Source: Chloroflexota bacterium (GTDB taxonomy: Bacteria > Chloroflexota > Dehalococcoidia > DSTF01 > RBG-16-68-14). From it: DNA of 64,000 bases. Below the pieces are notes generated by a model. That model was not told the origin of the DNA, made no database searches, and saw only the letters and a program-made list of their open reading frames with translations. This document shows positions 26,427 through 46,800 of the stretch, in pieces. The position numbers were made by a program, and so were the translations under genes. How positions within the stretch are numbered: the first letter of the stretch is position 1; each line of letters begins with the position of its first letter. Location: contig QIFC01000115.1 in the NCBI GenBank assembly GCA_003228685.1, positions 6,028-70,027 on the forward strand, written 5' to 3'.

Positions 26427-27155
26427 TCAGGGCGCGAGTTGTGTGGCGCCCGGGTCATCCGGGGCGTCCGGCATGCGCGTGGCGCGCACAATCACCCGCT
26501 GATCGTACTCACCGATGCTCGGGTCGAAGCTTCCGCCGCAGGTGATCAGCGTGATCACTTCCTCTAACGTGTCGCCGACGATCTCCTGGATAGGCGCCGT
26601 CTGCGCGTCGACCGTCCGTCGCTCGCTGACGCCGTATTTGTAGATGGTGCCATCTGTGAGGCGCACCTCTATCACGTCGTCGCGTTCCAGGTCCTTGAGG
26701 TTCCAGAACACGGCTGGGCCGTAGTCGAAGTAGTCCACGTGTCCTGAGAAGACCGCGTTGCCGCCTTCCGCGTCCGGCGGGAAGCCTGGGCGGGCGCTGA
26801 AGTCGTACCAGGCGACGTTCAGCGGGCCATCCGGCGTCTCCATCACGCCGTCGTTGTCGACGCCGAGCACAACGATGGCCGCGTCGACGTCGAACTTGGG
26901 AATCGAGAGACTCGCTATGGGCGCTGCGCTGGGAGGTGGGGGTGACGCCGTCGGCGTGGCCACGATTCGCTGCACGAGTGCGCGTGGCGTTGCAACGATA
27001 GGAGAGGCCCGCCCGGGGCCTTCGTACGTATCTTCGTCCACGATTCCCATGATGCTGAGGAGGAAGAGGACGCCTGCCGCGGCGAGCGCCATGATGCCGG
27101 CGCCCATTGCCGAGAGCGAGAGCTTGTTCCAGCCGCTGGAGGTCTTTCTGGCCAT
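26427..27155 (-). CDS. sortase (class E/F-like) paralog 1
   Basis: N-terminal TM anchor, catalytic His in NAVFSGHVDY, TLITCGG (catalytic Cys) and VIVRATR (Arg). Confidence 0.85.
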   Translation of the reverse strand: MARKTSSGWNKLSLSAMGAGIMALAAAGVLFLLSIMGIVDEDTYEGPGRASPIVATPRALVQRIVATPTASPPPPSAAPIASLSIPKFDVDAAIVVLGVDNDGVMETPDGPLNVAWYDFSARPGFPPDAEGGNAVFSGHVDYFDYGPAVFWNLKDLERDDVIEVRLTDGTIYKYGVSERRTVDAQTAPIQEIVGDTLEEVITLITCGGSFDPSIGEYDQRVIVRATRMPDAPDDPGATQLAP

Positions 27156-27198
27156 GACGACACCACACCAGCCGGGTAGACGTTCGCTACCCGCCGCT

Positions 27199-27233
27199 GG
27201 CTATCACTATATCGTGCGCGTTTGGAGTGCTAT
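27199..27233 (-). repeat. 35-nt element abutting the DUF3105 stop codon (copy A)
   Basis: ggctatcaCtatatcgtgcgcgTttggagtgctat differs at 2 of 35 positions from the copy at 27987-28021. On the minus strand it contains TATAGT. Confidence 0.8.
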
Positions 27234-27841
27234 TGCGAAGCCTGATTGCCTTCCGGGGCGCGCCCGCGGTTCTCGCTGACAAATTTCTCGACGCGCTCAA
27301 GGTCGAACTCGTCCAGCAGGTCGATCTGTCCCCAGGATGTGAGGGCGATCCTGGCGTTCATCTCGGAGTAAGGGGCCAGGATCACGCCACGATCGTAGCC
27401 ACTGGTGATGAGCCGGAGGTTCCTGACAAGCTCCAGACATGGCGTTGAGCAGTTGTACTGCACCAGTACCCCACCGTGTTCCAGCCCGTGCACCTGCGAG
27501 GCTTCGGAGAGGCTGCGCTGCTCACCCCAGGAAGGCGCCTGCGCCAGATGCGGTCCCGAGGTCGGCGGTGATGTTGAGTAGCCACCGGCGGGTTGTCCTG
27601 AGTGGTCTCCTGCGCCGTACGTCGATACGCTTTCGCCCGGCCGCGGCTGAAGGTAGACCAACCAGATGACGGCGGCAAGAGCGGCGACGGCGGCCAACCC
27701 GGCCAGACCAAAGCCGATCCTCCGCAGCCGCTGACGGCCGCGGTCGTGTTCGACCTGCCGGTCGCGTTCCGCTCGGCGCTCCAGACGCCGTTGACGCTTG
27801 GCTTCTTTCTTCTCCCGCTGTTCCCGTGTCGGCACTAGCAC
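27230..27841 (-). CDS. DUF3105-domain membrane-anchored protein
   Basis: Lys/Arg-rich N-terminus, one TM helix, then SGPHL....HGLEHGGVLVQYNC......ILAPY....IALTSWG, the pattern I associate with DUF3105. Confidence 0.65.
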   Translation of the reverse strand: MLVPTREQREKKEAKRQRRLERRAERDRQVEHDRGRQRLRRIGFGLAGLAAVAALAAVIWLVYLQPRPGESVSTYGAGDHSGQPAGGYSTSPPTSGPHLAQAPSWGEQRSLSEASQVHGLEHGGVLVQYNCSTPCLELVRNLRLITSGYDRGVILAPYSEMNARIALTSWGQIDLLDEFDLERVEKFVSENRGRAPEGNQASQ

Positions 27842-27986
27842 ACTCCCACATCGGGCCGGTGGCCCTGCTACACGATGGGTCCATCTTGCCCGTCCGTCCA
27901 GGCTACCTACGTAATCACATCATCTACGCCGATAACGTGTTGCGGATCACCAAGGGGTCGATCCCAGCCGCCGTTACCTGGCCACA

Positions 27987-28021
27987 GGCTATCAGTATAT
28001 CGTGCGCGGTTGGAGTGCTAT
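27987..28021 (-). repeat. 35-nt element abutting the sortase-2 stop codon (copy B)
   Basis: ggctatcaGtatatcgtgcgcgGttggagtgctat. On the minus strand it contains TATACT. Confidence 0.8.
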
Positions 28022-28749
28022 CTGGAGGCTTGGGCGCCGACGGGGCCTGTGGGGTCGTAGATCCGCTGAGCGCGGACGATCACGCGGTCGTCGTACTCGC
28101 CGATGCTCGGATCGAAGGTGCCGCCGCAGGTAATCAACGTGATCACCTCGTTTGGCGTATCGCCAACGATCTCCTGGATAGGGGCTGTCGTCGCGTTGTA
28201 CTGGTTTCTGGAGGTGACACCATACCGATAGACCGTGCCGTCGGCGAGGCGGACCTCGATCTCGTCGTCCAGTTCAAGGTTCGTCAGGTTCCAGAACACG
28301 GCCGGGCCGTAGTTGTAGTAGTCCACGTGTCCTGAGAAGACCGCATTGCCACCGTTGCTTTCTTCAGGAGCGAAGCCAGGACGCCCACTGAAGTCGTACC
28401 AGGCGACGACGGTCGGGCTGTCCGGCGTCTCCATGACGCCCTGGTCGTCTACGCCAAGAGTCACGATTGGCGCCTCGATGTCGAAGCGCGGGATGGAAAT
28501 CATCTCGATCGGCGCTTCACTTGGAGGGGGAAGCTCGGCCGTTGGCGAGGCCACCGGGGTCAGTACCTGGCTGATGTCCCCGAAGTCGACCCTGGTAGCA
28601 GGCCCGCTGTACCCCTGGTCGCCGACTGTACCCGTGATCTGAAGGACGAAGAGGACGCCGGCCGCCAGCAGCGCTATCAAGCCAGCCGCCATCACGGCGA
28701 GCGAGAGGCGGTTCCAGCGGGCGGTTTCTGGTGGGTTCGTCTCCGTCAT
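28018..28749 (-). CDS. sortase (class E/F-like) paralog 2
   Basis: It aligns with paralog 1 along its length: NAVFSGHVDYYNYGPAVFWNL, TLITCGG and VIVRAQR. Confidence 0.85.
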   Translation of the reverse strand: MTETNPPETARWNRLSLAVMAAGLIALLAAGVLFVLQITGTVGDQGYSGPATRVDFGDISQVLTPVASPTAELPPPSEAPIEMISIPRFDIEAPIVTLGVDDQGVMETPDSPTVVAWYDFSGRPGFAPEESNGGNAVFSGHVDYYNYGPAVFWNLTNLELDDEIEVRLADGTVYRYGVTSRNQYNATTAPIQEIVGDTPNEVITLITCGGTFDPSIGEYDDRVIVRAQRIYDPTGPVGAQASR

Positions 28750-30076: not shown

Positions 30077-32953
30077 CTAGTACGCGAGCCAGCTCCAGAA
30101 GATACCGCTCGGCGCGCCCGGGAAGGTATCGATCAGGCCGGCGGCGTATTGGAGGATCAGCGCGGCGTCCAGCGGGTCGATGACGCCGTCGCCGTTGACG
30201 TCCGCGACGTTCGGGAACGGCACCTCGGCGATGTTTGCCGCCTGGAAGAGCACCCAGAGCGCGTCCAGCGGGTCGATCACTGTGTCGCCGTTGACGTCGC
30301 CCAGGTCGGGCTTCTCAGCAGGTGTCGTCGGTTCGCCGAAGTTCCATGCGCTCGCGGTGGAGCTGTGGATTGTGATTTCGATGTCACCTTCGGCGGTGCC
30401 GGTGAGCAGATTGCGCTTCGAGACGCACGGGTCCGGCGAGGCCGTGCCTGAGAGGCCCGTGCAGTTCGGCACCAGGATGCCGCCCTTGAAGACCGGCAGG
30501 TTGGCCGCCGTGATATCGTCCGGGACGATCGATTCGTCCAGGAGGAACCGGACGATCAGCGGGAACTGCGAGGTGCCGGCGGGCGCGCTGATGTTGGACT
30601 GCTGGCCGAAGAGGTGGTAGCCGGGCGGGTCCGGCTGGTTGATCAGCTTCTCAGTGATCGTGACCTTGCCGCCGACGGGCAACGTCACCGACGTCTCGAG
30701 CGGGTCGTCGGGCGTGGCGTCGAAGCCGGTCGTTACCTTGCCGCCCGGCGGCACCGTGCCTTGTGCGCCGTCCGGCGGCGCTGGCGTTGGCGTAATCGTC
30801 GGGGTATTCGTCTCGGTCGGCGTCGACGTTTGCGTCGGCGTGTCGGTCACCGTCGGCGTGTTTGTCGGCGTGGGCGTCGGGCAGGCGCTGGGGCCGCCGG
30901 GGCACGGGGTGTTCGTCGCTGTCGGCGACTCCGCGGGCGTTAAGGTCACGGTTGGCGTGATGGTCGCCGTCGGCGCCGGCGGCGGAGCTTCGCAGTTGAT
31001 GCGCAGCAGGTCGAGGAGCACGAAGTTATCATCCTCGTCCTTCACCGTGTCGCCGTCTTCATCCAGGGTGCGCGCGCCAATATCGGGCATGCTTCCGGGC
31101 GTGTAGAAGAGGTTGCTCTCCAGCGCTTGGTCCGGCTTGAAGAACGCGGAGCCGGTTTCGTTGAGGATGCCTCCCTGCTGGTTGTTCGCCGTCCGTTTCG
31201 TCAGGCCGATCGCGAACTGGCCCTCCTCCTGGCAGCGCACGTTCATCTCGGCGAGCCTGCCGACGCTGAGGTCTGAGAGGAGGGGCAAGAGCCCGTTCTC
31301 GGTTGCCCTGGCGTCCAGTCTGATCACGTTGGAAGGGTTGCTGCCACTCTTTGGGAATCTGTCGCAGTTGAAGGCGGTCCCGCTATCCGGCCGCCAGATG
31401 ATGTCATCGACGCACGGACGCGGCTCGTACACCAGCCCGGCAAGGTACGTCTCCAACTGGAAGCCGCCGTAGCCGTCCGGGATCGCGTCCGCGTTGACGG
31501 CGATCGTGAACGTGCTGGGGTCGTCCGCGTTGAACGGCGCCGTGCACTTGTCATCGGAGTCGCACACGATGCCGGTCCCTTCGGCAGAGAGCGACATCTT
31601 CTGCTTGATGAGCGCGCAGTCGATCTCGAGCACGTCGGCGTACGGATCGTCGACGAGGCCGACCTCCACGGGAGTGCCGTCGGCCAAGAAGAACGCCGAT
31701 GTCTCGGTCAGTCTGGCGAACGTGTCGTTGTTCGTGAGCCCGTTGCAGTAGACGTCCAGCTCCACGAGCGAGCCGTCGTGATCGCTGTTCGGGAAGGGCG
31801 GCTCCGCGGCTCTGCTCGCCTGGTGCTGAACTTGGAGCGCTGGTGGAGTGGCTGGCGCCGGTGTGATGGAACGTTCGCAGCTAGCGTTGAACAGGTCCGG
31901 CCAGATGTCGACCTCCTCCACGCAGCCGGCGGCATCGTCATCAGGGTTGCGCGGGTTGTACGTGAGTTTCTCGTCCAACAGCACCTCGGACTGGAAGCCG
32001 CCGTAGCCATCCGGCGTCGGGATCGTGTTGGCGTTGACGAAGAGCGTAAATTCGCCGAGTTTCTCCTGGCCGGGCCAGAAGTTCGCGCGGCATTGGGTCG
32101 GCTTGTCCTCGTCCCCCGTGCACGAGACGTAGCCGGGCTCGTCTTCGAGCGCGCCGGGCTCGCCGGTCGCGCTGAGCGACATGATGGCGCCCGGCAGCGG
32201 CGTGAATGTTGGCGTGATGGTGGGCGTGGTGGTTGGTGTTGCTGTTTCGGTGGCGGTTGGCGTGGGTGTCGCCGTTGGCGTGTTCGTCGGAGTGGCGGGC
32301 AACGCCCCTCCGGCGCCGCAGTTCACGTGCAGCGTGTCGACCTTCGGAATGATCTGGATGTTATTGGGATCTACGAACAATGAACCACTCGAACCGGCCG
32401 GGGGTACGCCGTTCGGCAGGAGTTCAATGATCTGACTGCTGCCCGTAGCCGAGCAGGTCATCGAGAGGTCGACGAAGTTGCCCGTGTAATTACTGACTGG
32501 CAGCGGGGGGAAAAAGCCCGTGACGCAGCCATGGCCGACGTTGCCAGCAGGAGGAGGATTGTTGGTCTGCGTGGGATCGATCCTGAGCAAGATTGCCCCC
32601 AGGCCGCACAGTGGCGGCTGCATCTCTTCAAGAACCGGCGTGCCCAAGTTGTACGTGACGTTTTCGAAGTAGTTGACCCAGGAGTTCACCGTCGTGAAGC
32701 CGGCGTCCGGAGCATCGATGATATCGACCGAGAGCGTGAAGTCGCCGTTGAGCGGAACACAGACCTCGCCCGGCGCGGTCGTGGCGCAGGTCTCAAAGCC
32801 ATCTTTGACCACCAGGACCATCTCGGCATCCGGTTCTACGGCGGACGTGACATTGAGTTCGTTGACGATAATGAACGCGCCCGCCACGAACGCGACGAGA
32901 ACGGCTGCCAGCACCGCAAGCCGGCCGGTCTCTCCCTGCCTTTGGAAACTCAT
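30077..32953 (-). CDS. secreted 958-aa protein: 3 Cys-bracketed cohesin-like modules, PT linkers, an unknown domain and a C-terminal type-I-like dockerin
   Basis: N-terminal hydrophobic anchor (LAVLAAVLVAFVAGAFIIV). Module copies end in ..VNCG, ..IDCA and ..INCE. Linkers include [32 protein letters not shown]. The C-terminus is GDVNGDTVIDPLDALWVL...DVNGDGVIDPLDAALILQ. Confidence 0.8.
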   Translation of the reverse strand: MSFQRQGETGRLAVLAAVLVAFVAGAFIIVNELNVTSAVEPDAEMVLVVKDGFETCATTAPGEVCVPLNGDFTLSVDIIDAPDAGFTTVNSWVNYFENVTYNLGTPVLEEMQPPLCGLGAILLRIDPTQTNNPPPAGNVGHGCVTGFFPPLPVSNYTGNFVDLSMTCSATGSSQIIELLPNGVPPAGSSGSLFVDPNNIQIIPKVDTLHVNCGAGGALPATPTNTPTATPTPTATETATPTTTPTITPTFTPLPGAIMSLSATGEPGALEDEPGYVSCTGDEDKPTQCRANFWPGQEKLGEFTLFVNANTIPTPDGYGGFQSEVLLDEKLTYNPRNPDDDAAGCVEEVDIWPDLFNASCERSITPAPATPPALQVQHQASRAAEPPFPNSDHDGSLVELDVYCNGLTNNDTFARLTETSAFFLADGTPVEVGLVDDPYADVLEIDCALIKQKMSLSAEGTGIVCDSDDKCTAPFNADDPSTFTIAVNADAIPDGYGGFQLETYLAGLVYEPRPCVDDIIWRPDSGTAFNCDRFPKSGSNPSNVIRLDARATENGLLPLLSDLSVGRLAEMNVRCQEEGQFAIGLTKRTANNQQGGILNETGSAFFKPDQALESNLFYTPGSMPDIGARTLDEDGDTVKDEDDNFVLLDLLRINCEAPPPAPTATITPTVTLTPAESPTATNTPCPGGPSACPTPTPTNTPTVTDTPTQTSTPTETNTPTITPTPAPPDGAQGTVPPGGKVTTGFDATPDDPLETSVTLPVGGKVTITEKLINQPDPPGYHLFGQQSNISAPAGTSQFPLIVRFLLDESIVPDDITAANLPVFKGGILVPNCTGLSGTASPDPCVSKRNLLTGTAEGDIEITIHSSTASAWNFGEPTTPAEKPDLGDVNGDTVIDPLDALWVLFQAANIAEVPFPNVADVNGDGVIDPLDAALILQYAAGLIDTFPGAPSGIFWSWLAY

Positions 32954-33324
32954 CCTCAGCCCCTTCCTCTCTGCCCCACCCCGCCGCTGACCCTCATGCC
33001 GCGCGGGAGTGTCGTGCTGACTGCCCTTCTAAAGACAGCCGTGGCCGGCATGCACGACCTCCACTTCACCTCATCCACCCGTACCGACGTGCTTGTCGGC
33101 CTCGCACACGGGCCTGATTCCTCACTCAGGCCCACTGAACTGGGAGTAAGCTTACCACACATAATGTGTAACGTAGCAGCCCGCGTCCTAGCCAGTATTT
33201 AACACATGTTAAGAGTACTACGGGGCTGGACTGCGGGGTATTAGGGTTTTCCCTTAATTGTGCTAACAGTCCGTCATAGGGAGCCCGGTCCGTGACGCTT
33301 CGAGAGACCTCAAGCTTGGGCGGC

Positions 33325-34332
33325 TCAGAGGCATCTGAACAGGTTGAGTTCGATCCAGAGGATGAACAGGGCATCGAGGGGGTCAACGACGCCGTCGCCG
33401 TTGACGTCGCCCGGGTGAGGCAGGCTGGGGATCATGGTGGTGCTGAACCAGAGCACCCAGAGCGCATCCTCCGCGTTGACGCGCCGGTCGCCGTTGACAT
33501 CGCCGCAGGGGAGGATGGCGCTGACGAAGGTGGCGGTCGGCGTCACCGGAGGCGGCGTGGCGGTGGGCGACGGCGTGGGTGTCGACAGGTCCGGCGTCGG
33601 CGTTACCGTGTCCGTGGGGCCGCCGGGGGTGCGCGTGGGCCCCGGCGTGGGCGTGGGCGGCTCGCCGCAGATCATGGTCAGCCCCGTGGTCTTGGGAACG
33701 ACATCCTCGTTGTCCGGGCCGCGGAACAACGAGCCGACGGTGCCGGTGGGGGAGGCGTCCGACGAGAACCTGGCGTAGGGGAGCATCTCAATTGGGTTGC
33801 TGCTGTCCCGCGGCGAACAGACCAGGACGATCTCCACGCCGATGCCGACGAAGCTGCTCGGCGGCGGCGCTATGATGCCGGAGAGGCAGCCGTGGCTGAC
33901 GAGCGTGTCGGTGTTATTCCCCAAACCGGGGAGCCGCTGGTCTGTCTGGGACTTCAGGGCGGTGGCGGGTTCGCAGTTCGGCCAGAGGATCTCAGAAATG
34001 GCGGTTGGCGAGAAGTCGTACGTGATGGCGCTGCCGTAGAGGATGGACGACTGGAAGATGATGTAGCCGGGGTCGCCGTTGCTGTCGGCGGCCGGGGCGC
34101 GGACGATCTCCACGCCGAGCTTGAAGGACTCGTTGGTGGCGAGCTGACACACCCCTTCCACGCAAACGTCCGGCGGGTCCGTCACAAGGAGCCGCATCTC
34201 GGGTCCTTCTCCGAAACCGGACGTCGGCGTCGCCGTCTGATCGGCCAGGACCAGCGTAAGGGCCAGCAGCAGTCCCAGTCCGAGGAGGAACGCTGTGAGA
34301 TGCTTGGCACGCCGTCCGGGTTGCACGCTCAT
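33325..34332 (-). CDS. secreted protein: cohesin-like N-module, PT linker and type-I-like dockerin
   Basis: The ATG at 34332 follows GGAGGG. Signal peptide LTAFLLGLGLLLALTLVLA. The module runs GPEMRLLV...GLTMICG. The C-terminus is CGDVNGDRRVNAEDALWVL...GDVNGDGVVDPLDALFIL. Confidence 0.8.
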   Translation of the reverse strand: MSVQPGRRAKHLTAFLLGLGLLLALTLVLADQTATPTSGFGEGPEMRLLVTDPPDVCVEGVCQLATNESFKLGVEIVRAPAADSNGDPGYIIFQSSILYGSAITYDFSPTAISEILWPNCEPATALKSQTDQRLPGLGNNTDTLVSHGCLSGIIAPPPSSFVGIGVEIVLVCSPRDSSNPIEMLPYARFSSDASPTGTVGSLFRGPDNEDVVPKTTGLTMICGEPPTPTPGPTRTPGGPTDTVTPTPDLSTPTPSPTATPPPVTPTATFVSAILPCGDVNGDRRVNAEDALWVLWFSTTMIPSLPHPGDVNGDGVVDPLDALFILWIELNLFRCL

Positions 34333-34539
34333 CGACCGGATCCCTCCAGAAAGCCCCACCCATCACGTCCGGTTCTGCCGCCGCCGATCTACAGCGGCTA
34401 TCGATCAGTTTACCATACGTGCGCTGAGCGGCCGTAGCGGGACTGGGGCGTCTCCTCAATCAGAGGGGGCACCCCGACTTGCGTCGGAGCGCCCCCCCAA
34501 TGAATCTCGAGTATCGTTACGCGTTCGCGATAACGGCTC

Positions 34540-35487
34540 CTAGCAGGTAAGCCTGTCCTGGTCGAGCAGACCGGCAACTACTTGCTGGATGAGAGCGGCG
34601 TCTCTGCTGTCCACGTTGCCGTCGCCGTTCACGTCCGCCTGATCACCCTTCGGCAGGCGGTCTGCGCCGTCAATGAGCCCGGCCTCTACTTGGAGGATGA
34701 GGAGCGCGTCTACGGCGTCCACCGCCTCGTTGTCGTTGACGTCGCCACACTGCTGTTCCGACGGGGTGCTGGTCGGCGGGACCGGCGTATTCGTCGGCGT
34801 GTTGGTGGGCGTGTCGACCGGTACGTCGTCCGGCGTGTTGGTCGGCGTTTCGTCCGGCACGTCCGGCGTGTCGGTTGGATCACCGCCACCAGCACCGCAG
34901 ACGATAGTGATGTTGCTCACCTTCGGAATAATGGGATTATCGCCAGGATCCTTGAACAGCGCGCCATTGGTGAGAGCGATCGGGTCGCCCTCTGGTAGCA
35001 GTTGCACTAACGTGCTGCTATCACCAGCCGAGCAGTTCATGGAATAGTTCAGAAAGTTGCCCGTGTAGGTGCTTACGGGACGCACCAGAATCCCGGTGAT
35101 GCAACCGCTAAGGACCGACTCTGGGTCCAACTGATCCCGCAGCGCTATAGACGCAGGGCTGCACTCTGGGAAGGAGAACTCGTCGAGAGGCAAATCCGTT
35201 GGCTTGTAGGTCAGGTCAGAGCCAAATACGACATATGACTGGGCCAAAATGTAGCCTTCGGCCGGCGCCGTCAAGACCTCCACCGAGAGGGTAAAGGCAG
35301 CGCCCGGTTCGACCGTGCAGGTGGAGCCTTCGCAAGTCCCACCTTCGCTGACTGTCAACGCCATCTCCGGGCCACCTTCGGCCGCGTCCGTGGTGCTGGT
35401 CAGGTTATCGGCCATGAAGAACGTCATTGCCAGCAGGGCAATCACGGCTGCCGCGCCGAGCCCTAGAATCCTTTTGCTTCGCTCCAT
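34540..35487 (-). CDS. secreted protein: cohesin-like N-module, PT/D linker and type-I-like dockerin
   Basis: The ATG at 35487 lies 6 nt after AAGGAGGT. The module runs GPEMALTVSEGGTCEGSTC...NITIVCG. The C-terminus is CGDVNDNEAVDAVDALLILQ...DVNGDGNVDSRDAALIQQ. Confidence 0.8.
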   Translation of the reverse strand: MERSKRILGLGAAAVIALLAMTFFMADNLTSTTDAAEGGPEMALTVSEGGTCEGSTCTVEPGAAFTLSVEVLTAPAEGYILAQSYVVFGSDLTYKPTDLPLDEFSFPECSPASIALRDQLDPESVLSGCITGILVRPVSTYTGNFLNYSMNCSAGDSSTLVQLLPEGDPIALTNGALFKDPGDNPIIPKVSNITIVCGAGGGDPTDTPDVPDETPTNTPDDVPVDTPTNTPTNTPVPPTSTPSEQQCGDVNDNEAVDAVDALLILQVEAGLIDGADRLPKGDQADVNGDGNVDSRDAALIQQVVAGLLDQDRLTC

Positions 35488-35525
35488 GCTGTTACCTCCT
35501 TGCATTTCCTACTTGGTCTCTACTC

Positions 35526-36317
35526 CTAGCGGCTGCGTGCCGCGCGCCAGCCGGACGCACCGAGGCCGGCGGCGCCAATGGCGAATAGGCCGCCGATCAC
35601 GAGCCACAGCATCGCGTTAGAACCATTGTCACCGGTCGAAAGCGGACCGCTCCCTGAGGGCGGAAGCACGATATCGCCGTCGCCGTCTCCGTCGCCGTCT
35701 CCGTCCGGGGTCGCGGTCGGCTCTGGCGGCGCTTCGCCGCAGTTGACCGTCACGGAGGCAACCTTGGGGAAGATCTGCTCGCCATTGTCCCCCGTCAAGA
35801 GAGCGCCGCTCGTGCCCGCGACGGGGTCGCCCTCGGGCAGCAACTGCACGTTGTTGCTGGAGAAGGTGTCGCTGCATTCCATTGCAAGCTCGAATACGGA
35901 GCCTTCGTAGGTGCTCAGCGGCAGCGGCGGGATGACGCCCGTGAGGCCGCCGTGCAGCACGGTATTTGGCGCAATCGAGTCGCGGACGACGACGTCCGGT
36001 ATCACGTCTGGCCACGTGACCTCTTCTCCGGCAGTGTCGGTCATATTGTATGTAAGGTCTGGGCCGTAATCGATGAACGACTGCACGAGCACGTAACCCT
36101 CGGCAGGCGCGGCGTCGACGTTGACTGTAAGTGTGAACGACTCTCCAAGATCGAGGTCGCACTCATCACCAGAGCATCCTGACACGCTGAGCGACATTGC
36201 TGCCGCTTCTTCAGCCAGCGCTGCCGGCTGAGCGAGGTGGCCCAGCATGAACACCGCGGCAAGGGCGGCGCCGATGATTGCTATGCGACTGAATGTGTTC
36301 CGTCCCTGTACTCCCAT
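35526..36317 (-). CDS. cell-wall-anchored protein: single cohesin-like module plus an LPPSG sorting signal (no dockerin)
   Basis: Signal peptide, then a module AMSLSVSGCSGDEC...SVTVNCG. It ends in DGDGDGDGDIVLPPSGSG + LWLVIGGLFAIGAAGLGASGW + RAARSR, that is, LPXTG-like motif, TM helix and basic tail. Confidence 0.8.
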   Translation of the reverse strand: MGVQGRNTFSRIAIIGAALAAVFMLGHLAQPAALAEEAAAMSLSVSGCSGDECDLDLGESFTLTVNVDAAPAEGYVLVQSFIDYGPDLTYNMTDTAGEEVTWPDVIPDVVVRDSIAPNTVLHGGLTGVIPPLPLSTYEGSVFELAMECSDTFSSNNVQLLPEGDPVAGTSGALLTGDNGEQIFPKVASVTVNCGEAPPEPTATPDGDGDGDGDGDIVLPPSGSGPLSTGDNGSNAMLWLVIGGLFAIGAAGLGASGWRAARSR

Positions 36318-36574
36318 GTTTATCCTTCCTCCTGCTTCCAGTCTTACCCCAAGAACCTACGGCAGGGCCATTCTCCCGAGGAGTTCAGCCCAACCTCTAC
36401 CCAATACTGTGTGTGTCCCCCGCCACCAAATGCGGAAAGTCACCCCAGCACAGGGCTTAGCCTAGCGCATTGGCCAACAGAGCACCATGTCTCATTCGCC
36501 GGGCGCTATCCAAGTTCGCAACAATAATACTGGATCGTTCCGCATGCGCAAGGCCACGTTCGGCAGCTACGAGT

Positions 36575-36609
36575 CCGGGGGAGCCGTCCGTATGTGGCGG
36601 CTCCCCCGG
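36575..36609 (-). terminator. 12-bp GC-rich hairpin downstream of the 36632 gene
   Basis: ccgggggagccg-tccgtatgtgg-cggctcccccgg begins about 23 nt after the stop on the minus strand. I see no clear U-tract. Confidence 0.6.
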
Positions 36610-36631
36610 AGAATATCAGGCTTCGAAGGCG

Positions 36632-37465
36632 CTAAGGCTGGTTGCAGGGCAGTTGGAACTGCAGGATCGTGCCTAGGATGTCGTTTGCCAAGTCGATGAA
36701 GCCATCGCTATTGATGTCGAACGCGGGGCTCCAGTCAGGATCGAGGGGCGTCATCTGGAACCGGATAATCACGCCCAGGATGTCGTTCGCCAAGTCGACG
36801 ACTCCGTCTCCGTTTGGTGGCGGCGAGTTGTCCGCGCAACCAAGGTAGACGATGTTGGAGTTCTTCAAGGTGAGCGGTATCTGCTCCAAATCCAGGTCGA
36901 CCGGAGCGTCAAGCAGGAACGTTCCCTGAACGCCGACATCTGGGGCCACAAACGCGAGCGGCGAAGAGAGGGCCATCTCTGAGCCTGGAGTCAGCACGAG
37001 GTGCCCGATCAAGCCGGTGCCGGTCGGCCCCAGGGGCGGAGGAGGACTCAATGTTGAGCACAGTCCGATGACTTGACCTGCCTGGGGGTTCTGACCGGGA
37101 ATGCACGCTCCGGACCGGTTGGTTGACTGGAGCCACGCCCTGTCGCCAATCCCGTCTGCGTCGCCAGGGGCGGCGGAAGCTGCGAAGAGGGAGTCATCAT
37201 ACTGTACGGCGATGTTGAAGCCCGAGACGCCGGTAGGCTCCTTGACGTTGGTAGCCCACACGTAGATGTCACGTGGAAATCCGTTTGGAGTGAGGATGAT
37301 AGCCGGTGCGCCTATAGGACTTAGGCTTGAATAGCTGAACATGATCTGCGTGTCGGTTGCGCTCTCGGCGCTGGGTTGCCGCGCCAGGCTTAACGTGATA
37401 ACAACCGCGGCTGCCAGGATAACGACCTTCGTCAGAGTGAGCGTGCTGCCTATCAAGACCTTCAC
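36632..37465 (-). CDS. secreted protein: cohesin-like domain plus a 'DLANDILG'-type double dockerin-like module
   Basis: The GTG at 37465 lies 4 nt after AGGAGGAAG. TGVSGFNIAVQYDDSLF is a cohesin-like strand. The C-terminus is DGVVDLANDILGVIIRFQ...DGFIDLANDILGTILQFQ. Confidence 0.75.
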   Translation of the reverse strand: MKVLIGSTLTLTKVVILAAAVVITLSLARQPSAESATDTQIMFSYSSLSPIGAPAIILTPNGFPRDIYVWATNVKEPTGVSGFNIAVQYDDSLFAASAAPGDADGIGDRAWLQSTNRSGACIPGQNPQAGQVIGLCSTLSPPPPLGPTGTGLIGHLVLTPGSEMALSSPLAFVAPDVGVQGTFLLDAPVDLDLEQIPLTLKNSNIVYLGCADNSPPPNGDGVVDLANDILGVIIRFQMTPLDPDWSPAFDINSDGFIDLANDILGTILQFQLPCNQP

Positions 37466-37769
37466 TAAACTTCCTCCTGCGCCGTTCTTCGCCGGCAGGC
37501 GCCTCGTCTTCTGCTCCCCACGTCTATTCACGCCGCCGTAAGAGCCCTCAGGCGCACCAACGTATCGCCTGAGTCTTGCGCGCTACGAACGCTTGCGTTG
37601 CGTCATTCCTTAGCACTCTGCGTCTCTCCATTAATCCAACGGTCGAATGCGACAATTCGTAACGCAATCTGTCGCTGTCGTGCCTTTTTCTGATGGCTCC
37701 CCTCGTCAAGGCCCGCGTCCCGTCCCTCCCGGGACCTAACGAGGACAGCCATGCCGGCCAGAAGATGAA

Positions 37770-37812
37770 GGGACGGGGGAGCCGAACTCTTGGTCCGGTG
37801 CTCCCCCGTCCC
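37770..37812 (-). terminator. 13-bp perfect hairpin downstream of the 37895 gene
   Basis: gggacgggggagc-(17 nt)-gctcccccgtccc begins about 80 nt after the stop on the minus strand. Confidence 0.6.
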
Positions 37813-37894
37813 TGTGGTCACTCCTTGACCTGCTGTATTTGCTTTCCCCGCAACCTCTTTCTCAGGTTACGGACTAACTACGTTCGTTGCCTCC

Positions 37895-39424
37895 TTAGGC
37901 CTTCGGGTTGACCGGATCCTGCGTCGGGTGCGGTGTCTCGCAGGTGCTGCCGAATCTGCCGAATACGAACTGTAGGTCGTTGATATCGATGTCCAAGTCC
38001 GACTGCTGGCTTGAGGGCTCCAGGTTCATGAAGTCCTTGTAGATCAGGCTGCCCTTCTCTACGCCCCAGCGGAAGGCGATCGCTTGTGCGTCAACAGCAG
38101 TGACGGCACAGTCAGCATCCACATCTCCCTCGAGGTAGCGGAACGTGATGCTCGCGTCGTCGCAGGAGAAGATCGGAATCGCGTGGCCCTGCTCGTCGCC
38201 AAGGTCACAGTTCACGTTGCTGATGAAGACGACGTTACCGTTGTCCTGGTTCGGCTTCATTTCCGAGTACAGGTCCGGCTGCGGGTAGATGTCCACGGAA
38301 GCCAGTGCAAGCAGCTCATCGATCGCGTGGCCCTTGCCAACGGTGACACAACCGATGCGGGCTACGCCCTCGAGCTGCGGCTTGGAGTCAGGCTGGTCAT
38401 CTTCGATGATGCAGATGGCCGGTCCAGGAGACTCCGGGTCCTTGATCGGGTTGCCACCCCACTCTTCGCCTGCGTTGATGTCAACACAGACCTTCTTGTT
38501 GTCGTAGCGCACCTCGAACTCGAAGGCTGCGAGCTGCTGGAATTCGCTCTCGCCCTTGGGGTCCGGAGAGACGATTTCCTGGTTCAGAATCTCGGCGAGC
38601 TCGCCAACGTTGGCGTTTGTCCCCTTGGTCGACAGACAAGAACTCGGAGGAATCTTCGCGCCCTGGCGCGTCAGGAACACGTTCTGCAGCGCCGGGTCCT
38701 TGCTCATGCGCGGGATCGGCGGCGGCGTCGCTGTCGGCGTCGCGGTCGGTCCAGGTGCGCAGTTCACAGTAAGACCGGTGACGGACGGGTTAATCTGCTT
38801 GTCCGTGCCGCCCTCGGTGAAGAACGTTCCGTTCGTCAGAGCGGGAGCTTGGTCACCCACAATCAGGGTCAGTACGGACGTGCTGGCCGTGGTCGTGCAC
38901 GTGAACGAGAACCCGAACAGGTCGCCCACGTAGTCGCTGATCGGCAACGGCGGAATGCCTGCCGTGGTGGCGCCAGCTTGGTAGCCGTTGTTCGCCACGT
39001 CATCGATCGTGAGGAACGGGCCGAACGCCTGGTCCCAGATCATACATGGGTCCCCAACGCCCGTGTCGCACTTGTTGTCGACCGGAACGCCTGTGGCATC
39101 CGCGGGCTTGGTTACTAGGCCCTGGTTGTCGTAGTCGATCCACGTGTTCACCAGGACATAGCCACCGGTCGGGATCACGTCCGCGACCGAGATGACATTA
39201 AACTTTGCGCCCAGGGGTACACAGACCTTGCCTGCTGCAGGATTGGCGCAGTCGAAAGCGTCGCCGGCGGGTATGCGCAGGCTGACTTGCGGATCCTGGT
39301 TGTCTGGGTTGAGCGCACTAGCGCTGTCGGAGCTTTGGCCAATTGCAAAGACCATGACCGCTACCGCAATTGCGAGCAGCGGAAGGCCCAGCAGACCCAG
39401 CACCTTGATTCGGTTGATATTCAC
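37895..39424 (-). CDS. secreted protein: cohesin-like N-module, second cohesin-like module and a '[14 protein letters not shown]'-type dockerin-like module
   Basis: The GTG start lies 7 nt after TAGGAGGT. The N-module runs DPQVSLRIPAGDAFDC...GLTVNCA. The C-terminal half (FEFEVRYDNKKV..IGCVTVG..) plus GDVDADCAVTAVDAQAIAFRWG...[20 protein letters not shown] parallels aa ~1330-1543 of the scaffoldin. Confidence 0.8.
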   Translation of the reverse strand: MNINRIKVLGLLGLPLLAIAVAVMVFAIGQSSDSASALNPDNQDPQVSLRIPAGDAFDCANPAAGKVCVPLGAKFNVISVADVIPTGGYVLVNTWIDYDNQGLVTKPADATGVPVDNKCDTGVGDPCMIWDQAFGPFLTIDDVANNGYQAGATTAGIPPLPISDYVGDLFGFSFTCTTTASTSVLTLIVGDQAPALTNGTFFTEGGTDKQINPSVTGLTVNCAPGPTATPTATPPPIPRMSKDPALQNVFLTRQGAKIPPSSCLSTKGTNANVGELAEILNQEIVSPDPKGESEFQQLAAFEFEVRYDNKKVCVDINAGEEWGGNPIKDPESPGPAICIIEDDQPDSKPQLEGVARIGCVTVGKGHAIDELLALASVDIYPQPDLYSEMKPNQDNGNVVFISNVNCDLGDEQGHAIPIFSCDDASITFRYLEGDVDADCAVTAVDAQAIAFRWGVEKGSLIYKDFMNLEPSSQQSDLDIDINDLQFVFGRFGSTCETPHPTQDPVNPKA

Positions 39425-39761
39425 TTATTCGACCTCCTACCGAGAAGTTGATACTTCTCTACCTTGTTGATGTTGCCTTGTGTAATGCTAGACATCCCCC
39501 CTTTCATGGCTCCAGACGGGGTAGGAACCAATGCCAATACGGCGAACTAGCAATCAACCGGGCGGGTTCGGCGATTGGTCAATTTTGGCCGCAGCGCGAC
39601 CGTCTCAGGCGGGGTACCTGTGGAATTTCTTCCACCAGCTTGTCCTTGTATATCATGGGTACCTGTCTTTGTCAACCCATCCCTCATGGGTACATTACGC
39701 TTCAAACCAGATTCCGACCCTCTCCTAGCTACGAGCCCAATGGGATTCCAGACGTATTTCA

Positions 39762-41966
39762 CTAGAGCAGCAGCGAGCAGTCTTGTGTGAAGTTCTGGAT
39801 TACGGGCAACATATCGAAGGCCAGGCCGACGAATCCGTCACCGTCGAAGTCGTAGAGCACGTCGAATTCGATGTCACTATCCGAGAGGCCGAGGGACTCA
39901 ATCATCGTGAGAATGTCGTTAGCCAGGTCAACAATGAGGTCTCCGTCGATATCGAAGCAGGCGCGTAGCAGGGTCGTTTCGCTCGCGTCGTTGCCCGCTG
40001 GTATCTCGTCGGGGTCGGACGCGGTGACGGTCACGCTGTTGATGATGTTCCTGTCCTCCAGCAGGGTTGGGGCCCGCACGTTGAGCGTGATCACCACCTG
40101 CTGGTTGACGTTGATCTCGTCGATGGTGCATTCCACTTTGTCGCCAGGTATCGCCTGACAGGCGGCGCCAACCGCGGACTCGAACGTGGCTGGCCTAAAG
40201 ACCGAGCCGGTGACGAGCGTAATGCTCGCGAGGGGCAGCGTGTCCGTCACAACAACGTCCAAGGCGTCTCCCAGGCCCTGGTTGAGGACGGTGATCTCGT
40301 AGCTGTAGTAGCCCAGGCGCAGCACAGGATCTTGGGAGTCCGTCTTTGAGACGACGAGGTCCGGTGGCGGCGCGATCACGGCTGTGTTCTCGACAGCTAG
40401 GTTGTTGCCTGTCTGGAGGAACAGCTCGTTGTCGGAGGTGACGAACGCCGAGTTCTTGAGGAAGGTACTTCTCGTGACTTCCGGCGCGGTCAGGACGATC
40501 TGGACGATCGACTCCGCGTTGGGAGCGAGCTTGCCGAGGTCGCACGTCACCTCACCGCTGTCCAATACGCACCCGGGGCCGGCCGAGACGAACGCCGCCT
40601 CCGGCGGCAGGGTGTCGACAATCTGGACGTTCTGCGCCGGGTGCGGCCCCAGGTTCTTAGCGACGAGGGTGTACGTGACGTCCTCACCACCGTCCAGAAA
40701 CGTGGGATCCCCTACCTTGGTAAGGATGACGTCGGAACGGGGCGCCAGCACCATCGTCTGCTCGATGTCTTTGTTGTTCCCCGTGTTGGCGAACGGTTCG
40801 TTCGTGGACGTCACGGTCACATTGTTGTCCACCAGCGCGTCCGTCACCTGCGTGGGCGCGTTGACGGTGATATCGATTGTGATGATATCGGTGGGCGCCA
40901 TGTCGCTCGTGACAGCGCAGGTCACGACGCCGGCCACGTGGTTGCACGTGGCATCGGCGGACGCCGCCGACTTGAACACTGATCCGGCGGGCAGCGTGTC
41001 TTCAACGACGACATTTTCGGCGGTCTGCAGTCCGATACTCTCGACCGTGATCTGATACGAAAGGCTGCCACCTGAGTCGACCGGGTCGATGAGGTCGACT
41101 TTCGTGACCTTCACGTCGGGCCGCTCGCTGGGTGGAGGGAGCGGCGTTGGCGTGTTCGTCGGCGTCGGCGATACGGTCGGCGTGGGCGTCGGCGGTATCG
41201 GCGTGTCCGTGGGTGTAGGTGTCGGGCCGACGCACTTGATCGTGAGCGTGTCCACCTTCGGTATTATTTGCGTGTTCGTACCGAATTCGGTGAACAGACT
41301 GCCGCTGGTCCCAGCCAGTGGGTCTCCTTCAGGGAGTAGCCGCACGAGCGTGCTGCTGGAGGAGGCGGAGCAGTTGATGTTAAGGATCACGAGGTTGCCA
41401 ATGTAGTCACTCGGCGGCTGTGGAGGAATTAGCGCGGTCAGTCCGCCATGGCCGATCGAAGCTGGAGCAATGTCCGTCCTGAGTGCGCCGCCGGGGAACA
41501 AGTGGGGCCAGACAACCTCATCACTCGGAAAGGTCGTGGGTTTGTAGGTCAAGTCCTCGGTTACGCAGTCGGCGTCTCTCCTGTCCGCGCCGCCGCCGCC
41601 ATTATCGATGTTGTCGCTGCACGTATTGGGGCCGTAGCCATCTTCGCTTGCGCTTGGGTTGTACGTGCCGAAGTCAACGAATGTATTCATCAGGATGTAC
41701 CCGCCGGCCGGGATACCCACTGCCTCTACGGCTAAGGTGAAGGGATCTTCAGCCATGACACATATCGTGTCCGGCCCGGTTCCCAGCGGACACGTTGTGC
41801 TGCCGCTCTTGACTGAAAGCGCCATCTCGGGCCCACCGCCAGCGGCCTCGGCTCGCTCATGAGCCGGCTGTTGCCATGTAAGGACGACCGCTACGGCCGC
41901 CACAATAATGGCCGGTACGATCAGAAGTCGCAGAGCCATCCTCTTCCGTTTCGTGTTGCCCTCCAT
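39762..41966 (-). CDS. secreted protein: cohesin-like N-module, PT linker, DUF11-type repeats and a 'DLANDIL'-type dockerin-like module
   Basis: AAGGAGGAGGG precedes the ATG. The module runs GPEMALSVKSGSTTC...TLTIKCVG. There are about 4 repeats of the pattern V.K.....V..G..V.Y.I.V.N.G...A.NV.V.DTLP, which I take as DUF11-like. The C-terminus is DGDLIVDLANDILTMI...DGDGFVGLAFDMLPVI. Confidence 0.8.
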   Translation of the reverse strand: MEGNTKRKRMALRLLIVPAIIVAAVAVVLTWQQPAHERAEAAGGGPEMALSVKSGSTTCPLGTGPDTICVMAEDPFTLAVEAVGIPAGGYILMNTFVDFGTYNPSASEDGYGPNTCSDNIDNGGGGADRRDADCVTEDLTYKPTTFPSDEVVWPHLFPGGALRTDIAPASIGHGGLTALIPPQPPSDYIGNLVILNINCSASSSSTLVRLLPEGDPLAGTSGSLFTEFGTNTQIIPKVDTLTIKCVGPTPTPTDTPIPPTPTPTVSPTPTNTPTPLPPPSERPDVKVTKVDLIDPVDSGGSLSYQITVESIGLQTAENVVVEDTLPAGSVFKSAASADATCNHVAGVVTCAVTSDMAPTDIITIDITVNAPTQVTDALVDNNVTVTSTNEPFANTGNNKDIEQTMVLAPRSDVILTKVGDPTFLDGGEDVTYTLVAKNLGPHPAQNVQIVDTLPPEAAFVSAGPGCVLDSGEVTCDLGKLAPNAESIVQIVLTAPEVTRSTFLKNSAFVTSDNELFLQTGNNLAVENTAVIAPPPDLVVSKTDSQDPVLRLGYYSYEITVLNQGLGDALDVVVTDTLPLASITLVTGSVFRPATFESAVGAACQAIPGDKVECTIDEINVNQQVVITLNVRAPTLLEDRNIINSVTVTASDPDEIPAGNDASETTLLRACFDIDGDLIVDLANDILTMIESLGLSDSDIEFDVLYDFDGDGFVGLAFDMLPVIQNFTQDCSLLL

Positions 41967-43754: not shown

Positions 43755-43858
43755 GAGAACCGGGCCTTCGACCCGCTGCGAGGCGGGAATACCAGCTTGG
43801 AGAGGGCGTGGCGCCAGTATACGTTCCCTCTTAACAGTGTCGCAAACAGCTAGCCTGT

Positions 43859-46800
43859 TCAAGGCCTAGTGTCCTGCCGCTCGGACGCTAGGACCTCTCT
43901 GAACCGAAGCCTGAACGGTTCCCGCGCGCTCACTCTCTGACGTCGCCACCAAAGCATCCGTGACCCGATCAACATGGCGAGGCCGCCGAGCAGGGCCGCG
44001 CCGGCCAATGATGTCGAGAGCCGGTCCTGGCTGTTTGAGCCGCTCCCTGTGTCTGGGAGGCCGACCACGGGCCCGCGTGCGGATGGCGCGACATCGCTGA
44101 CGGGTGTAGCCGTCGACGCGCCGATGACGGGCGGCCCGGTGTCGGTACCGTCCGTGGGCGTGGCGGTTGCCTGCGGGCTGTCGGTGGGCCTCGCGATGAA
44201 CACGGGCGTAGCCGTTGGGACCGGCGGCGAAGTCGACGTTGCTGTAGGCAGTGGCGTCGCTGTCGGCGGCCGCAGTGGCGTGGGCGTCGCGGTGTTTGGA
44301 AGAACGGGCGTGTCCGTGGCCGTTGCGTCTGGCGCTGGAGTATCGGTCACCGTGGCGCCCGGTACCGGCGTGTGCGTCGAGGTTGCCGTCACCGTAGCCA
44401 GCGTCGTTGGTGATGGCTCTGGCGTGCCCGAGCTGGACGGCTCCTCGGTTGGCGTAACCGTTGCCGTTACGGTCGGGAGCGGTGTCGCCGTTGGCGTGTC
44501 GCCCTCGGTTGGCGTGGCCGTCGGCGTCACGGTTGCGGCGGGCGTGCCAGCATCCTCACCGCCGGGCGTTGGCGTGCTCGTCGTGGCCGGAGTGACCGTC
44601 GCGCCGGGAGTCGTGGTGACGGTGGCCACAGGCGTCGGCGTTGGCGTCTGATCTATCGGCGATGGAGTCGGCGTAAACGTCGGCGTGGTCTTCGTGGGTG
44701 GTTCCTGCGCCTGCCACGGGTTCGCACAGGTGCTGCCATGACGGCCGTAGACGGCCTGCAGGTCGTTGATGTCGATGTCTCCGTCCGCCACGCCTTCCGG
44801 TTCCAGGTCGAACCATGTTTCGTAGAACTTGGAGCCCTTTTCAGCTCCGAAACGGGCGGCGACCATCTGCTCGTCTGAGACGTTCACCGCGCAGTCGGCG
44901 TTGATGTCCGACTCAAGGACACGGACGATGATTCTGGCATCTCCGACGAGGTTAAGCGGGATGGAGTTGCCGAGCGTATCCGAGAGCTGCGTATTGCCCG
45001 CGATATCGTCGAGGACCACCTCGATGCCGTTACCCGGCGCGGGGCGTAGCGGCAGATCTGAGAGAGGCGTGACATGGACGCGAGCGAGGTCGAACGTCCC
45101 GGTCGGGCCGGGGTCAGATCCAGACGTGACGCAGCCGAAGCGAATCTCTCCTTCCGTGAGGTCTGAGAGACAGGTAGCGGTGCGGTCCGTGCCTGCGATG
45201 GCATCTAGGAAGGGCTGACCATCAATTTCGAGCGATACAACCTTATGGTTGAACTTGATGGAAAGCTCAAATCCGCCTACCCCAGGCCCCGCCGGTGTGT
45301 TGTAGGCACGTTCGTAAATGATCAACGGCTCATTTCCGATGAAGAGGTTGGCTTCACTCGGTTCCTTGGCGATGGCCACCACCCCTTCGCCGGGCTCCAC
45401 GGCGGGAGCAGCGACGCTTTGCGTGCCGTCCGGATAGGCGACGGCCAATTTGCCTGACGTGACGGCAACTCTCAACGGTGCAGGAGAGATCCCGGACAGG
45501 GATGGGCTTCCCGGCGTGGCTGTCGGCGTCTGCGTTGCGGCCGGGAGAGGCGTGGCCGTCGATGGCGCGACAACTCCAATGATGCCGTCCTGTGTCACGA
45601 TGGGCAGCAGAAGCGCGCTCGAAATGTCTGTGAGGATCGGGTTAGACAGGTGCTGCGTTGAAAGACCTTCGCCGACGGCCAGGTAGGTGAACGTCGCGAT
45701 GACGCCGGAACCGTCAGGTCCAGGGACGATGGAGCCAATCGATGCGCAGGCGAAGTCCACGAATCCGGCTCCGAACGTCGCCGGAAGACAGGCGAGACTC
45801 CTTCCGGTGCTGCCCAGGAACGGGCCAACTGCAACCTCTTGTATTGTTGTCACCGCCGGGCTGAAGTCGAGCCTAAATTGGAAGGCCCCCAGGTCGGTCA
45901 CGTTCTCCACGACGACGTCGACGGAGGTGATTGTTCCCAGGTCCACTGTCTGATTTGTCGGCTGGATACGCATCGTAATCGGGCCAACTGCGGGCGTTGG
46001 CGTCGCTGTTGGCGTGTCTATAGGTATGGGCGTGTCCGTTGGCGTGGGTGTATCTGTTGGCGTTTGCGTGATGGTGGCCGTCGGGCAGATGCCGCCTGGA
46101 CACGGGGTTGGTGAGAGCGTCGGTGTTGGCGTGTCCGAAGGCGTTGGACTCAGCGTCGTCGTCGGTGTGCTGCTTGGCGTGACGGTTGGAGCGACGCCGA
46201 CGGACAGCGAGCCGCCTTGAAGCACCGGTGCCAGATGGGCGAGCCCTCCAATGTCCGTCAGGATCACGTCCTGGAGCGTCAGTGATGTGAAGCCGATGGC
46301 GTCTCCGGTCAAGGTGACGAATGCCAAGACTCCCGAGCCGGTGGGCCCTGCAGGCTCGGGTTCAAGCGTAACGCAGACGTATTGGATGATCCCTGGGCCA
46401 AACGTTGGGGCTAGACACGTGGTGTTCCGCAGCGTGCTCGAAAGGAAGGGTCCTGGGTCGATCCCGGTCACCGATGCGACGGCCACATCGTGGGTCAGCG
46501 TTACCTGGAATGCGCCCAACTCAGGCGAATTAGCGACCGCGATTTCGTAGACGGCGTCGCTGCCTTGGGCGATCGACTGGTCGGCAGGCTGGAGGCAGAC
46601 GGTGAGCACTAAGGCCGCGTTACAGGCCGGCGGCGTTGGTGTGGCGCTCGGCGTAGCTGTTGGACCTGTGGGCGTGGACGTTGGCGTGGCCGACGGTGGC
46701 GCCGGTGTGGGACACGTGATGTTGCCCAACACGGTCACGTCACTACCCTGGGAAGCGACGGGAATGGGGAGGCCGGCCGTGTCCGCGATCTCCAGCGAAC

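Follow-up and report, generated by a model that had tools for sequence, protein, structure and literature searches.

A divergent family of predicted cohesin-fold, disulfide-stapled modules in an enzyme-free surface-protein locus of Chloroflexota

A 64,000-nucleotide stretch of a Chloroflexota genome (contig QIFC01000115.1 of assembly GCA_003228685.1, positions 6,028 to 70,027; this whole stretch is the window of what follows) encodes nine copies of a protein module of ~160-210 amino acids (aa) which, to judge from a structure model, very likely folds as a cohesin, the receptor partner in the cohesin-dockerin pairing from which cellulosomes are built. The copies are distributed over seven genes, six in a main surface-protein locus and one a satellite; a single protein of 958 aa holds three of them, and in each of the seven proteins, which are secreted, the module follows immediately upon a hydrophobic segment at the N-terminus that is a signal or an anchor. 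The module is a real and sizeable family without prior annotation, probably a divergent cohesin-fold family that constitutes a distant branch of the cohesin superfamily. That it serves as a docking receptor (adaptor or anchor) for one of the three classes of dockerin-type tail found in the locus is a proposition to which we give somewhat better than an even chance.

The copy chosen for modelling was that of the 321-aa protein P321 (gene 34540-35505, minus strand; module at aa 43-207, 34885..35379), which has six cysteines. Given an alignment of 70 sequences headed by this module, and no template, AlphaFold2 predicts an all-beta domain (mean pLDDT 96.3, pTM 0.90); the mean pLDDT of all five models lies between 95.9 and 96.3, and 157 of the 165 residues of the model that was kept reach at least 90. 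Foldseek finds 73 matches to this model in the PDB at E<=1e-3, and the best 50 of the 73 (E 1.3e-7 to 4.3e-5; TM-scores of 0.48-0.68 when normalised to the query, and up to 0.74 when normalised to the target) are cohesins without exception: type I (6kgc, 3ul4, 5nrm, 1g1k, 2ccl), type II (1qzn, 2b59, 5k39, 3fnk) and type III (5lxv, from ScaC, which is the top match; 2zf9 and 4iu2, from ScaE), together with cohesin-like modules of Clostridium perfringens (2jh2, 2vo8). The first-pass annotation of this DNA had named the outcome that would count against its own proposal, a CARDB or Ig-like fold with no similarity to cohesins. The prediction points the other way: no CARDB, DUF11, Ig-like or other jelly-roll family is found among those best 50 of 73, and Pfam, searched as far as E 10, matches none of the nine copies to CARDB, Ig-like or DUF11 families (P734, a protein of 734 aa, does have DUF11 repeats, but outside its module). 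As a candidate fold, CARDB or Ig-like is rejected on both counts. The locus also encodes a scaffoldin whose conventional cohesins were taken here as the standard of a genuine cohesin, and its cohesin 1 (Coh1) was modelled as a control (pLDDT 93.9): the best 50 of its 79 matches at E<=1e-3 are likewise all cohesins, with E down to 5e-12 and TM-scores of 0.63-0.78. Because the best 50 matches of the control are also all cohesins, with stronger scores, the module behaves like a more distant cohesin.

Placing the DSSP strings of the two models side by side yields the same order of strands in the module and in Coh1. FTLSVEV of the module corresponds to [10 protein letters not shown] of Coh1, GYILAQSYVVF..LTY to AYEFEIQY...LTF, SVLSGCIT to TVRYGCVTF (with C93 of the module and C80 of Coh1 in the same strand), and GNFLNYSMNC-SAG to [14 protein letters not shown] (C116 against C106); the final strand stops close to C161 in the module, close to C144 in Coh1. 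The module differs by a hairpin with a Cys staple, added after strand 1, and by the greater length of two loops, one preceding strand 7 and one following strand 8. The strand-by-strand register with a scaffoldin cohesin that had been proposed from the sequence is thus reproduced from the models, including the correspondence of GC(I/L)T to GCVT and of the last two cysteines.

Cysteines were counted in the six Cys columns of the P321 module (C16, C21, C73, C93, C116 and C161 in module numbering) over 177 aligned domains. C116 is invariant (177/177) and C161 nearly so (171/177); C16 is present in 175 domains, each time with a cysteine at 21 or 22; 89 domains have both C73 and C93, 82 have neither, and 4 have one of them alone. 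Because presence and absence co-vary in this way, and with the putative partners sitting in a hairpin or at strand ends of the predicted secondary structure, the data support three disulfides: C16-C21, in the N-terminal hairpin, C73-C93, which is optional, and C116-C161. The first of these would staple the hairpin and the last would tie the final strand to strand 7. The divergent, disulfide-stapled cohesin-like fold of the first-pass annotation accordingly finds support, at the level of prediction, in the AlphaFold2 model, in the cohesin matches and in the co-variation of cysteines.

The copies in the window are only 16-50% identical in pairwise comparison and were therefore checked non-circularly, with a hidden Markov model (HMM) built from 63 homologues from other sources and containing no window sequence. 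All nine match it, with E between 5e-12 and 8e-62, which confirms the presence of the module in the satellite gene and in the six main-locus genes originally named. Scanned in all six frames with the same HMM, the window yields no tenth copy. The sequence motifs quoted for the module at the outset are also present in the consensus of the 70-sequence alignment, in which two long loop motifs, PP.P.S.Y.G and LLPEGDP.AGTSGALF, stand out as conserved.

The seven genes, all on the minus strand, combine the module with different tails and anchors. Three dockerin-type tails occur in the locus: a canonical dockerin (DocA), a flexitail-like variant with 'DLANDIL' repeats (DocB), and, behind cohesin 8 of the scaffoldin, a dockerin-like pair that contains Cys (DocC). 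P958 (gene 30077-32953) has its first module at aa 38-216 (32306..32842; E 3.1e-50), a divergent second at aa 253-447 (31613..32197; E 1.7e-15) and a third, also divergent and with a long insert ahead of its last strand, at aa 448-658 (30980..31612; E 9e-13), so that the claim of three copies in this protein holds; DocA is at aa 883-940 (30134..30307; Pfam Dockerin_1 E 2.4e-9). Between the third module and the dockerin lie ~220 aa with two cysteines (aa ~659-882; 30308-30979) that have no family match and may be the functional head of P958. P344 (344 aa, gene 33325-34359) consists of a module at aa 50-235 (33655..34212; E 5.7e-43) and a DocA at aa 285-340 (33340..33507; Dockerin_1 E 2.9e-8). 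P321 has the same plan: its module (E 8e-62), for which the earlier boundaries of aa 45-204 agree with those found here, is followed by DocA at aa 253-313 (34567..34749; Dockerin_1 E 4.9e-8).

P263 (263 aa, gene 35526-36317) joins its module (aa 36-197; 35727..36212; E 1.5e-61) to a cell-wall anchor signal and has no dockerin: the C-terminal sorting signal, read from sequence, comprises LPPSG, a hydrophobic segment and RAARSR (35529..35666), and two sortases are encoded 7-10 kb away. The module of P263 contains four cysteines and not six; the C73-C93 pair is missing. In P509 (509 aa, gene 37895-39424), the module (aa 42-226; 38747..39301; E 1.3e-37) directly precedes a cohesin of the type found in the locus (aa 235-432), which precedes DocC, a dockerin-like C-terminal pair at aa 433-495 (37940..38128; motif DxDxDC...D / DIDINDL) for which Pfam Dockerin_1 reaches only E 0.19. 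P734 (gene 39762-41966) has its module at aa 43-249 (41220..41840), interrupted by a Cys-containing insert of ~30 aa, so placed that the match to the non-window HMM comes in two pieces around it (E 1.9e-18 and 4e-37); three DUF11 repeats follow, and the sequence motif of DocB is at aa 672-726 (39789..39953). For this protein the original description stands as to the module and fails as to the cysteine pattern: the middle pair is absent and the insert carries a pair of its own. The satellite, P306 (306 aa), begins at a first GTG (58466-59386) or at an internal ATG (58466-59353) and contains the most divergent copy (aa 73-264; 58595..59170; E 5.4e-12), followed by one DLANDIL repeat. One further gene within the range originally described, 36632-37531, has no module and carries instead a conventional locus-type cohesin.

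How widespread is the module? When a profile of the nine copies is run exhaustively by HMMER against 1.84 billion cluster representatives (50% identity), 853 clusters match at E<=1e-3, 470 of them at E<=1e-10 and 145 at E<=1e-30. A word-indexed homologue search returns one match for a single module and 29 for the 70-sequence profile. It took the exhaustive HMM search to bring the family into view. None of the 29 relatives bears a name from any source, their sole precomputed annotation being the dockerin PF00404; for the module itself the nine copies have no meaningful Pfam match even at E<=10, and there is no NCBIfam model. A search of genome contigs with four window copies found no relatives. 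A degenerate DNA pattern for HG[CG].T...PP.P.S.[YF].G picks out 17 stretches in 185,579 species genomes, and 14 of the 17 are in four Chloroflexota metagenome-assembled genomes (MAGs). In these four, module genes stand in tandem and adjoin cohesin genes, and where several of the loci align with the window the nucleotide identity is 65-80%. Synteny that extends to cohesin genes, sortases and a PD40 propeller is seen in the four MAGs and on one JGI metagenome contig. The contig has genes for three module-dockerin proteins and for a protein of 930 aa with three modules, as well as for two sortases and the propeller. Literature searches on a cohesin system in Chloroflexi or sponge symbionts, and on 'flexitail', turned up nothing relevant.

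Domain architectures were tallied for 174 members of the family, across which all four of the window architectures recur: one or more modules with a canonical dockerin (54), with a flexitail-like DLANDIL tail (26), with a conventional cohesin and a DocC pair (8), or, for a single module, with an LPxTG-type sorting signal (8). Modules are the only recognisable content of another 76, many of which lie on truncated contigs. In the window, among family members, in the MAGs and on the JGI contig, the module thus keeps company with dockerins and anchoring signals in proteins and loci of scaffoldin type. An X-module that partners the dockerin was considered and rejected: Pro/Thr linkers of tens of residues lie between module and dockerin, and the module also occurs where there is no dockerin.

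If the module is a cohesin in more than shape, the window proteins are readily matched to known scaffoldins. A sortase-anchored scaffoldin with a single cohesin, ScaE, and adaptor scaffoldins are established precedents (PMC12484212). P263 has the parts of Ruminococcus flavefaciens ScaE (2zf9, 4iu2; PMC12484212) in the same order: signal peptide, one cohesin-fold module, short linker, LPxTG-type signal, membrane segment and basic tail. It differs in its motif, LPPSG, and in neighbouring sortases that are closest to class F; the ScaE structures are, as noted, among the matches of the module. P321, P344 and P958, which have a module or modules and a dockerin with no catalytic domain, follow the adaptor-scaffoldin plan of R. 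flavefaciens ScaC and ScaH and Acetivibrio cellulolyticus ScaB (PMC12484212, PMC4959524), with 1-3 cohesin-fold modules and a C-terminal dockerin. The window modules are far more divergent among themselves than the usual tandem cohesins, and the adaptor role, drawn from analogy, is putative. On this plan P263 would be a wall-anchored base, like ScaE; P321 and P344 would be monovalent adaptors, like ScaC; P958, with its three modules, would be a trivalent branching adaptor; and P509 would bridge two types of cohesin. Because the predicted structure of the module is that of a cohesin, the locus may encode a branching, enzyme-free surface scaffold. The family, its pattern of cysteines, the predicted fold, the architectures and the synteny are results of the analysis; kinship with cohesins, the binding of dockerins and the order of assembly are inferred from them.

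Two sets of observations weigh against this reading, the first of them bearing on kinship with cohesins. None of the nine copies matches Pfam Cohesin (PF00963) even at E<=10. When module profiles of 9, 70 and 177 sequences were aligned by hhalign with cohesins of the locus and of related genomes, the probabilities were 1.9%, 0.3% and 0.1%. The last of these is a weaker test, since a wrong match-state option was applied to the template alignment; its outcome was the same as before. A PDB sequence search with the module profile finds only TagF, at a chance level (E ~0.7). The TM-scores of the module are lower than those of the control cohesin, and the evidence for the fold is itself a prediction. 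Reciprocal HMM searches between module and cohesin are sub-threshold (i-E 0.35 to 1.3); these weak alignments and the HH alignments fall in the same register, with HGC(L)TG against (Y/F)GCVT. An HHpred-type comparison had been proposed at the outset as the check on cohesin kinship; run as hhalign against cohesin profiles made from the locus and its relatives it detects no significant similarity (probability 0.1-1.9%). Of the original interpretation the fold and the disulfides are therefore supported by prediction, and the link to cohesins at the level of sequence is not. The further step, to adaptors that allow branching or polymerisation, is plausible in view of the architectures, but a cargo or adhesin role would account for most of the same data. 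Because sequence homology is not demonstrable, it is predicted fold, placement of cysteines and genomic context that speak for membership in the cohesin superfamily, and they make common descent of the module with cohesins likely.

The second set bears on function. The module might have the cohesin fold and yet be cargo: an adhesin, or a head that binds glycan or matrix, displayed on the scaffoldin by way of its C-terminal dockerin or, in P263, fixed straight to the wall by sortase, with no dockerin binding, branching or polymerisation. We take this to be a genuine possibility, if not the probable one. The eight cohesins of the scaffoldin need dockerin-bearing partners, and five of the eight window proteins with a dockerin or flexitail-like tail carry the module, while a catalytic domain was found in none of the eight. 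In every case the module lies at the far end of the protein from the dockerin. Paralogues that are 16-50% identical are unlike the near-identical cohesin repeats of typical scaffoldins and are what one would expect of heads diversified for different ligands. Elsewhere in the family the module is fused behind propellers, coming after a seven-bladed RCC1-like or FG-GAP propeller in P0098, P0110, P0114, P0135, P0109 and P0131 (in at least one of them, P0109, a dockerin comes after the module); this also fits a generic surface or adhesion domain, and it means that the module can stand elsewhere than at the N-terminus. Adhesins of a single domain anchored by sortase are common, and a wall-anchored single module looks equally like an ordinary one of these. 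What favours the docking receptor over cargo is, firstly, that the best structural matches (50 of 73) are dockerin-binding cohesins rather than carbohydrate-binding modules or Ig-like adhesins. Secondly, the module takes the places that belong to cohesins in scaffoldins of the adaptor and anchoring kinds, and it also occurs three in a row and fused to a bona fide cohesin. Thirdly, the locus has three classes of dockerin and apparently fewer classes of conventional cohesin, which would leave room for a further type of receptor.

A more sceptical explanation sees in the module a beta-sandwich of convergent or generic kind, no more than a disulfide-stabilised spacer or stalk, whose cohesin matches reflect nothing beyond general jelly-roll topology. 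HMM and profile-profile comparison find no similarity to cohesins, the TM-scores of 0.48-0.68 are moderate, and tandem repeats and Pro/Thr linkers are typical of stalks. On the other side, no other jelly-roll family is found among the best 50 of 73 matches; the order of strands and the positions of two cysteine pairs coincide with those of the locus cohesins; the conserved loop motifs are not expected of a passive spacer; and the module is N-terminal and usually single instead of being repeated in the manner of a stalk. This explanation is accordingly regarded as improbable. That the model is simply wrong (for example, through the bias of a shallow alignment) and hides another fold, such as CARDB or an Ig-like adhesin, is most improbable of all: a single copy was modelled from 70 sequences and no experimental structure exists, but the five template-free models agree in their high pLDDT, the one that was kept has pTM 0.90 and 157/165 residues at or above 90, Pfam offers the nine copies no CARDB, Ig-like or other family at E up to 10, and the partners of the proposed disulfides fall in a hairpin or at strand ends.

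How, then, does the module compare with cohesins already on record? Cellulosomal cohesins of types I, II and III (PF00963; for example, R. flavefaciens ScaC 5lxv, Clostridium acetobutylicum CohA2 6kgc and A. cellulolyticus type II 1qzn) have the fold that is predicted for the module and are of similar size, and the module is found, as they are, with dockerins, Pro/Thr linkers, scaffoldins and sortases. It differs from them in having no detectable sequence similarity (no Pfam match, hhalign below 2%), in its three conserved disulfides, as suggested by the pattern of cysteines, in the extra N-terminal Cys-stapled hairpin and in its long conserved loops. The setting also differs: there is no CAZyme cargo in the locus, and the host belongs to Chloroflexota, not Clostridia. 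The non-cellulosomal cohesins of Archaeoglobus fulgidus (2xdh) and C. perfringens (2jh2, 2vo8, 2w1n) put the cohesin fold to use for ends other than the breakdown of cellulose; Coh1 of the locus has its best match in 2xdh, and C. perfringens modules also match the new module. Those cohesins are recognisable by sequence, while the module is not.

The surface-protein locus occupies 26.4-49.4 kb of the window on the minus strand, with a G+C content of ~64% all along it, and comprises the scaffoldin and eight secreted proteins, two sortases, and a PD40 propeller that is encoded on the other strand. The scaffoldin (1831 aa; 43859..49354, minus strand; Pfam Cohesin E 1.7e-37) has eight conventional cohesins, behind which come, in this order, a DocC-like pair, a long Pro/Thr linker and an LPDTG sorting signal. 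The sortase genes (26427-27155 and 28018-28749, with a DUF3105 gene between them, together spanning 26427..28749 on the minus strand; Pfam Sortase E 4e-21 and 2e-20) are paralogous, and their nearest NCBIfam model is that of class F, at 108-111 bits and thus below its cut-off of 166. They are presumed to be the processing enzymes for the LPxTG and LPxSG signals of the locus, whose motifs, LPDTG-SGS and LPPSG-SG, have a spacer ahead of the membrane segment. Pfam and NCBIfam scans find no catalytic domain in the proteins of the window locus. The parts of these proteins that are not module include the DUF11 repeats, the ~200-aa region in P958 and the ~540-aa N-terminal part of a 612-aa protein (gene 42024-43862), which has no Pfam or NCBIfam match and is followed by a C-terminal dockerin that falls just under the cut-off (Dockerin_1 E 4e-4). 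Three window proteins with a dockerin or flexitail tail have no module: this one, P299 and P365. P299 (299 aa, the product of 36632-37531) pairs a conventional locus-type cohesin (cohesin HMM E 9e-38) with a flexitail-like tail, and both escape Pfam (Cohesin and Dockerin_1, respectively), which makes it a second protein of adaptor-like build, one that would go unnoticed in routine annotation. The DNA that separates the satellite gene from the main locus includes 54647-57292, which codes for a polytopic membrane protein of 881 aa unmatched in Pfam and NCBIfam.

The tails deserve comment in their own right. C-terminal repeats of the form DG(V/I)(V/I)DLANDILG.I..F occur at 62605-63702 (aa 243-362), 36656-36814, 39789-39953 and 58502-58555. 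The first of these is in P365 (365 aa, 62605-63702), which is a full match to the NCBIfam flexitail family NF041520 (136 bits); P299 and P306 reach 33 and 27 bits, below the cut-off. The DLANDIL tails of P734 and P306 belong to this family or resemble it; NF041520 describes the tail and not the module. By their motifs the repeats read like a duplicated dockerin Ca-loop and helix, and flexitail may be an unrecognised class of dockerin, a dockerin-like character that is here a motif reading (Dockerin_1 E 0.024); a PDB sequence search with the tail finds no relative. The DocC-type pair (D.(N/D)ADCAV...[15 protein letters not shown]) stands directly after cohesin 8 of the scaffoldin and after the cohesin of P509. 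The cohesin-plus-DocC unit (aa ~1318-1545 of the scaffoldin, aa 235-495 of P509) recurs in 8 other family members, and it could be an intramolecular clasp or a unit of head-to-tail polymerisation. Cohesins 1-7 of the scaffoldin fall into two groups by sequence: Coh1, 3, 4 and 5 have four cysteines, with one pair near the C-terminus, and Coh2, 6 and 7 lack the C-terminal pair; Coh2 and Coh6 have an N-terminal pair instead, and the pair of C66/C80 type is kept in all. Conserved disulfides are unusual for cohesins. The two groups may differ in the dockerins that they recognise.

Cohesin-dockerin pairs are standard high-affinity modular connectors, both of bacterial surfaces and in synthetic biology, and surveys count cohesins by their Pfam profiles. 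Cohesin modules, adaptor scaffoldins and non-cellulosomal cohesins were already known; what is new is a large cohesin-fold family that curated profiles miss, its conserved disulfide pattern, a conserved enzyme-free locus in Chloroflexota and the association with flexitail. Since a cohesin-fold family of hundreds of clusters at 50% identity is invisible to Pfam profiles, cohesin-based assemblies outside Clostridia would be undercounted. Carried to its end, the argument leads to a sortase-anchored, enzyme-free 'construction kit' in Chloroflexota, in which the module family would be the receptor for an orthogonal class of dockerin, possibly flexitail, and the monovalent, trivalent and wall-anchored proteins would assemble themselves into a branched or polymeric lattice independent of polysaccharide degradation; so complete a picture is speculative and, taken whole, rather unlikely. 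If it is true, it would provide new orthogonal, disulfide-stabilised pairs of connectors, and it could give a function to an unexplained tail of surface proteins. And if the modules do bind dockerins, then in a poorly studied phylum this system would be used for the architecture of the cell surface or for adhesion, and not for the display of enzymes.

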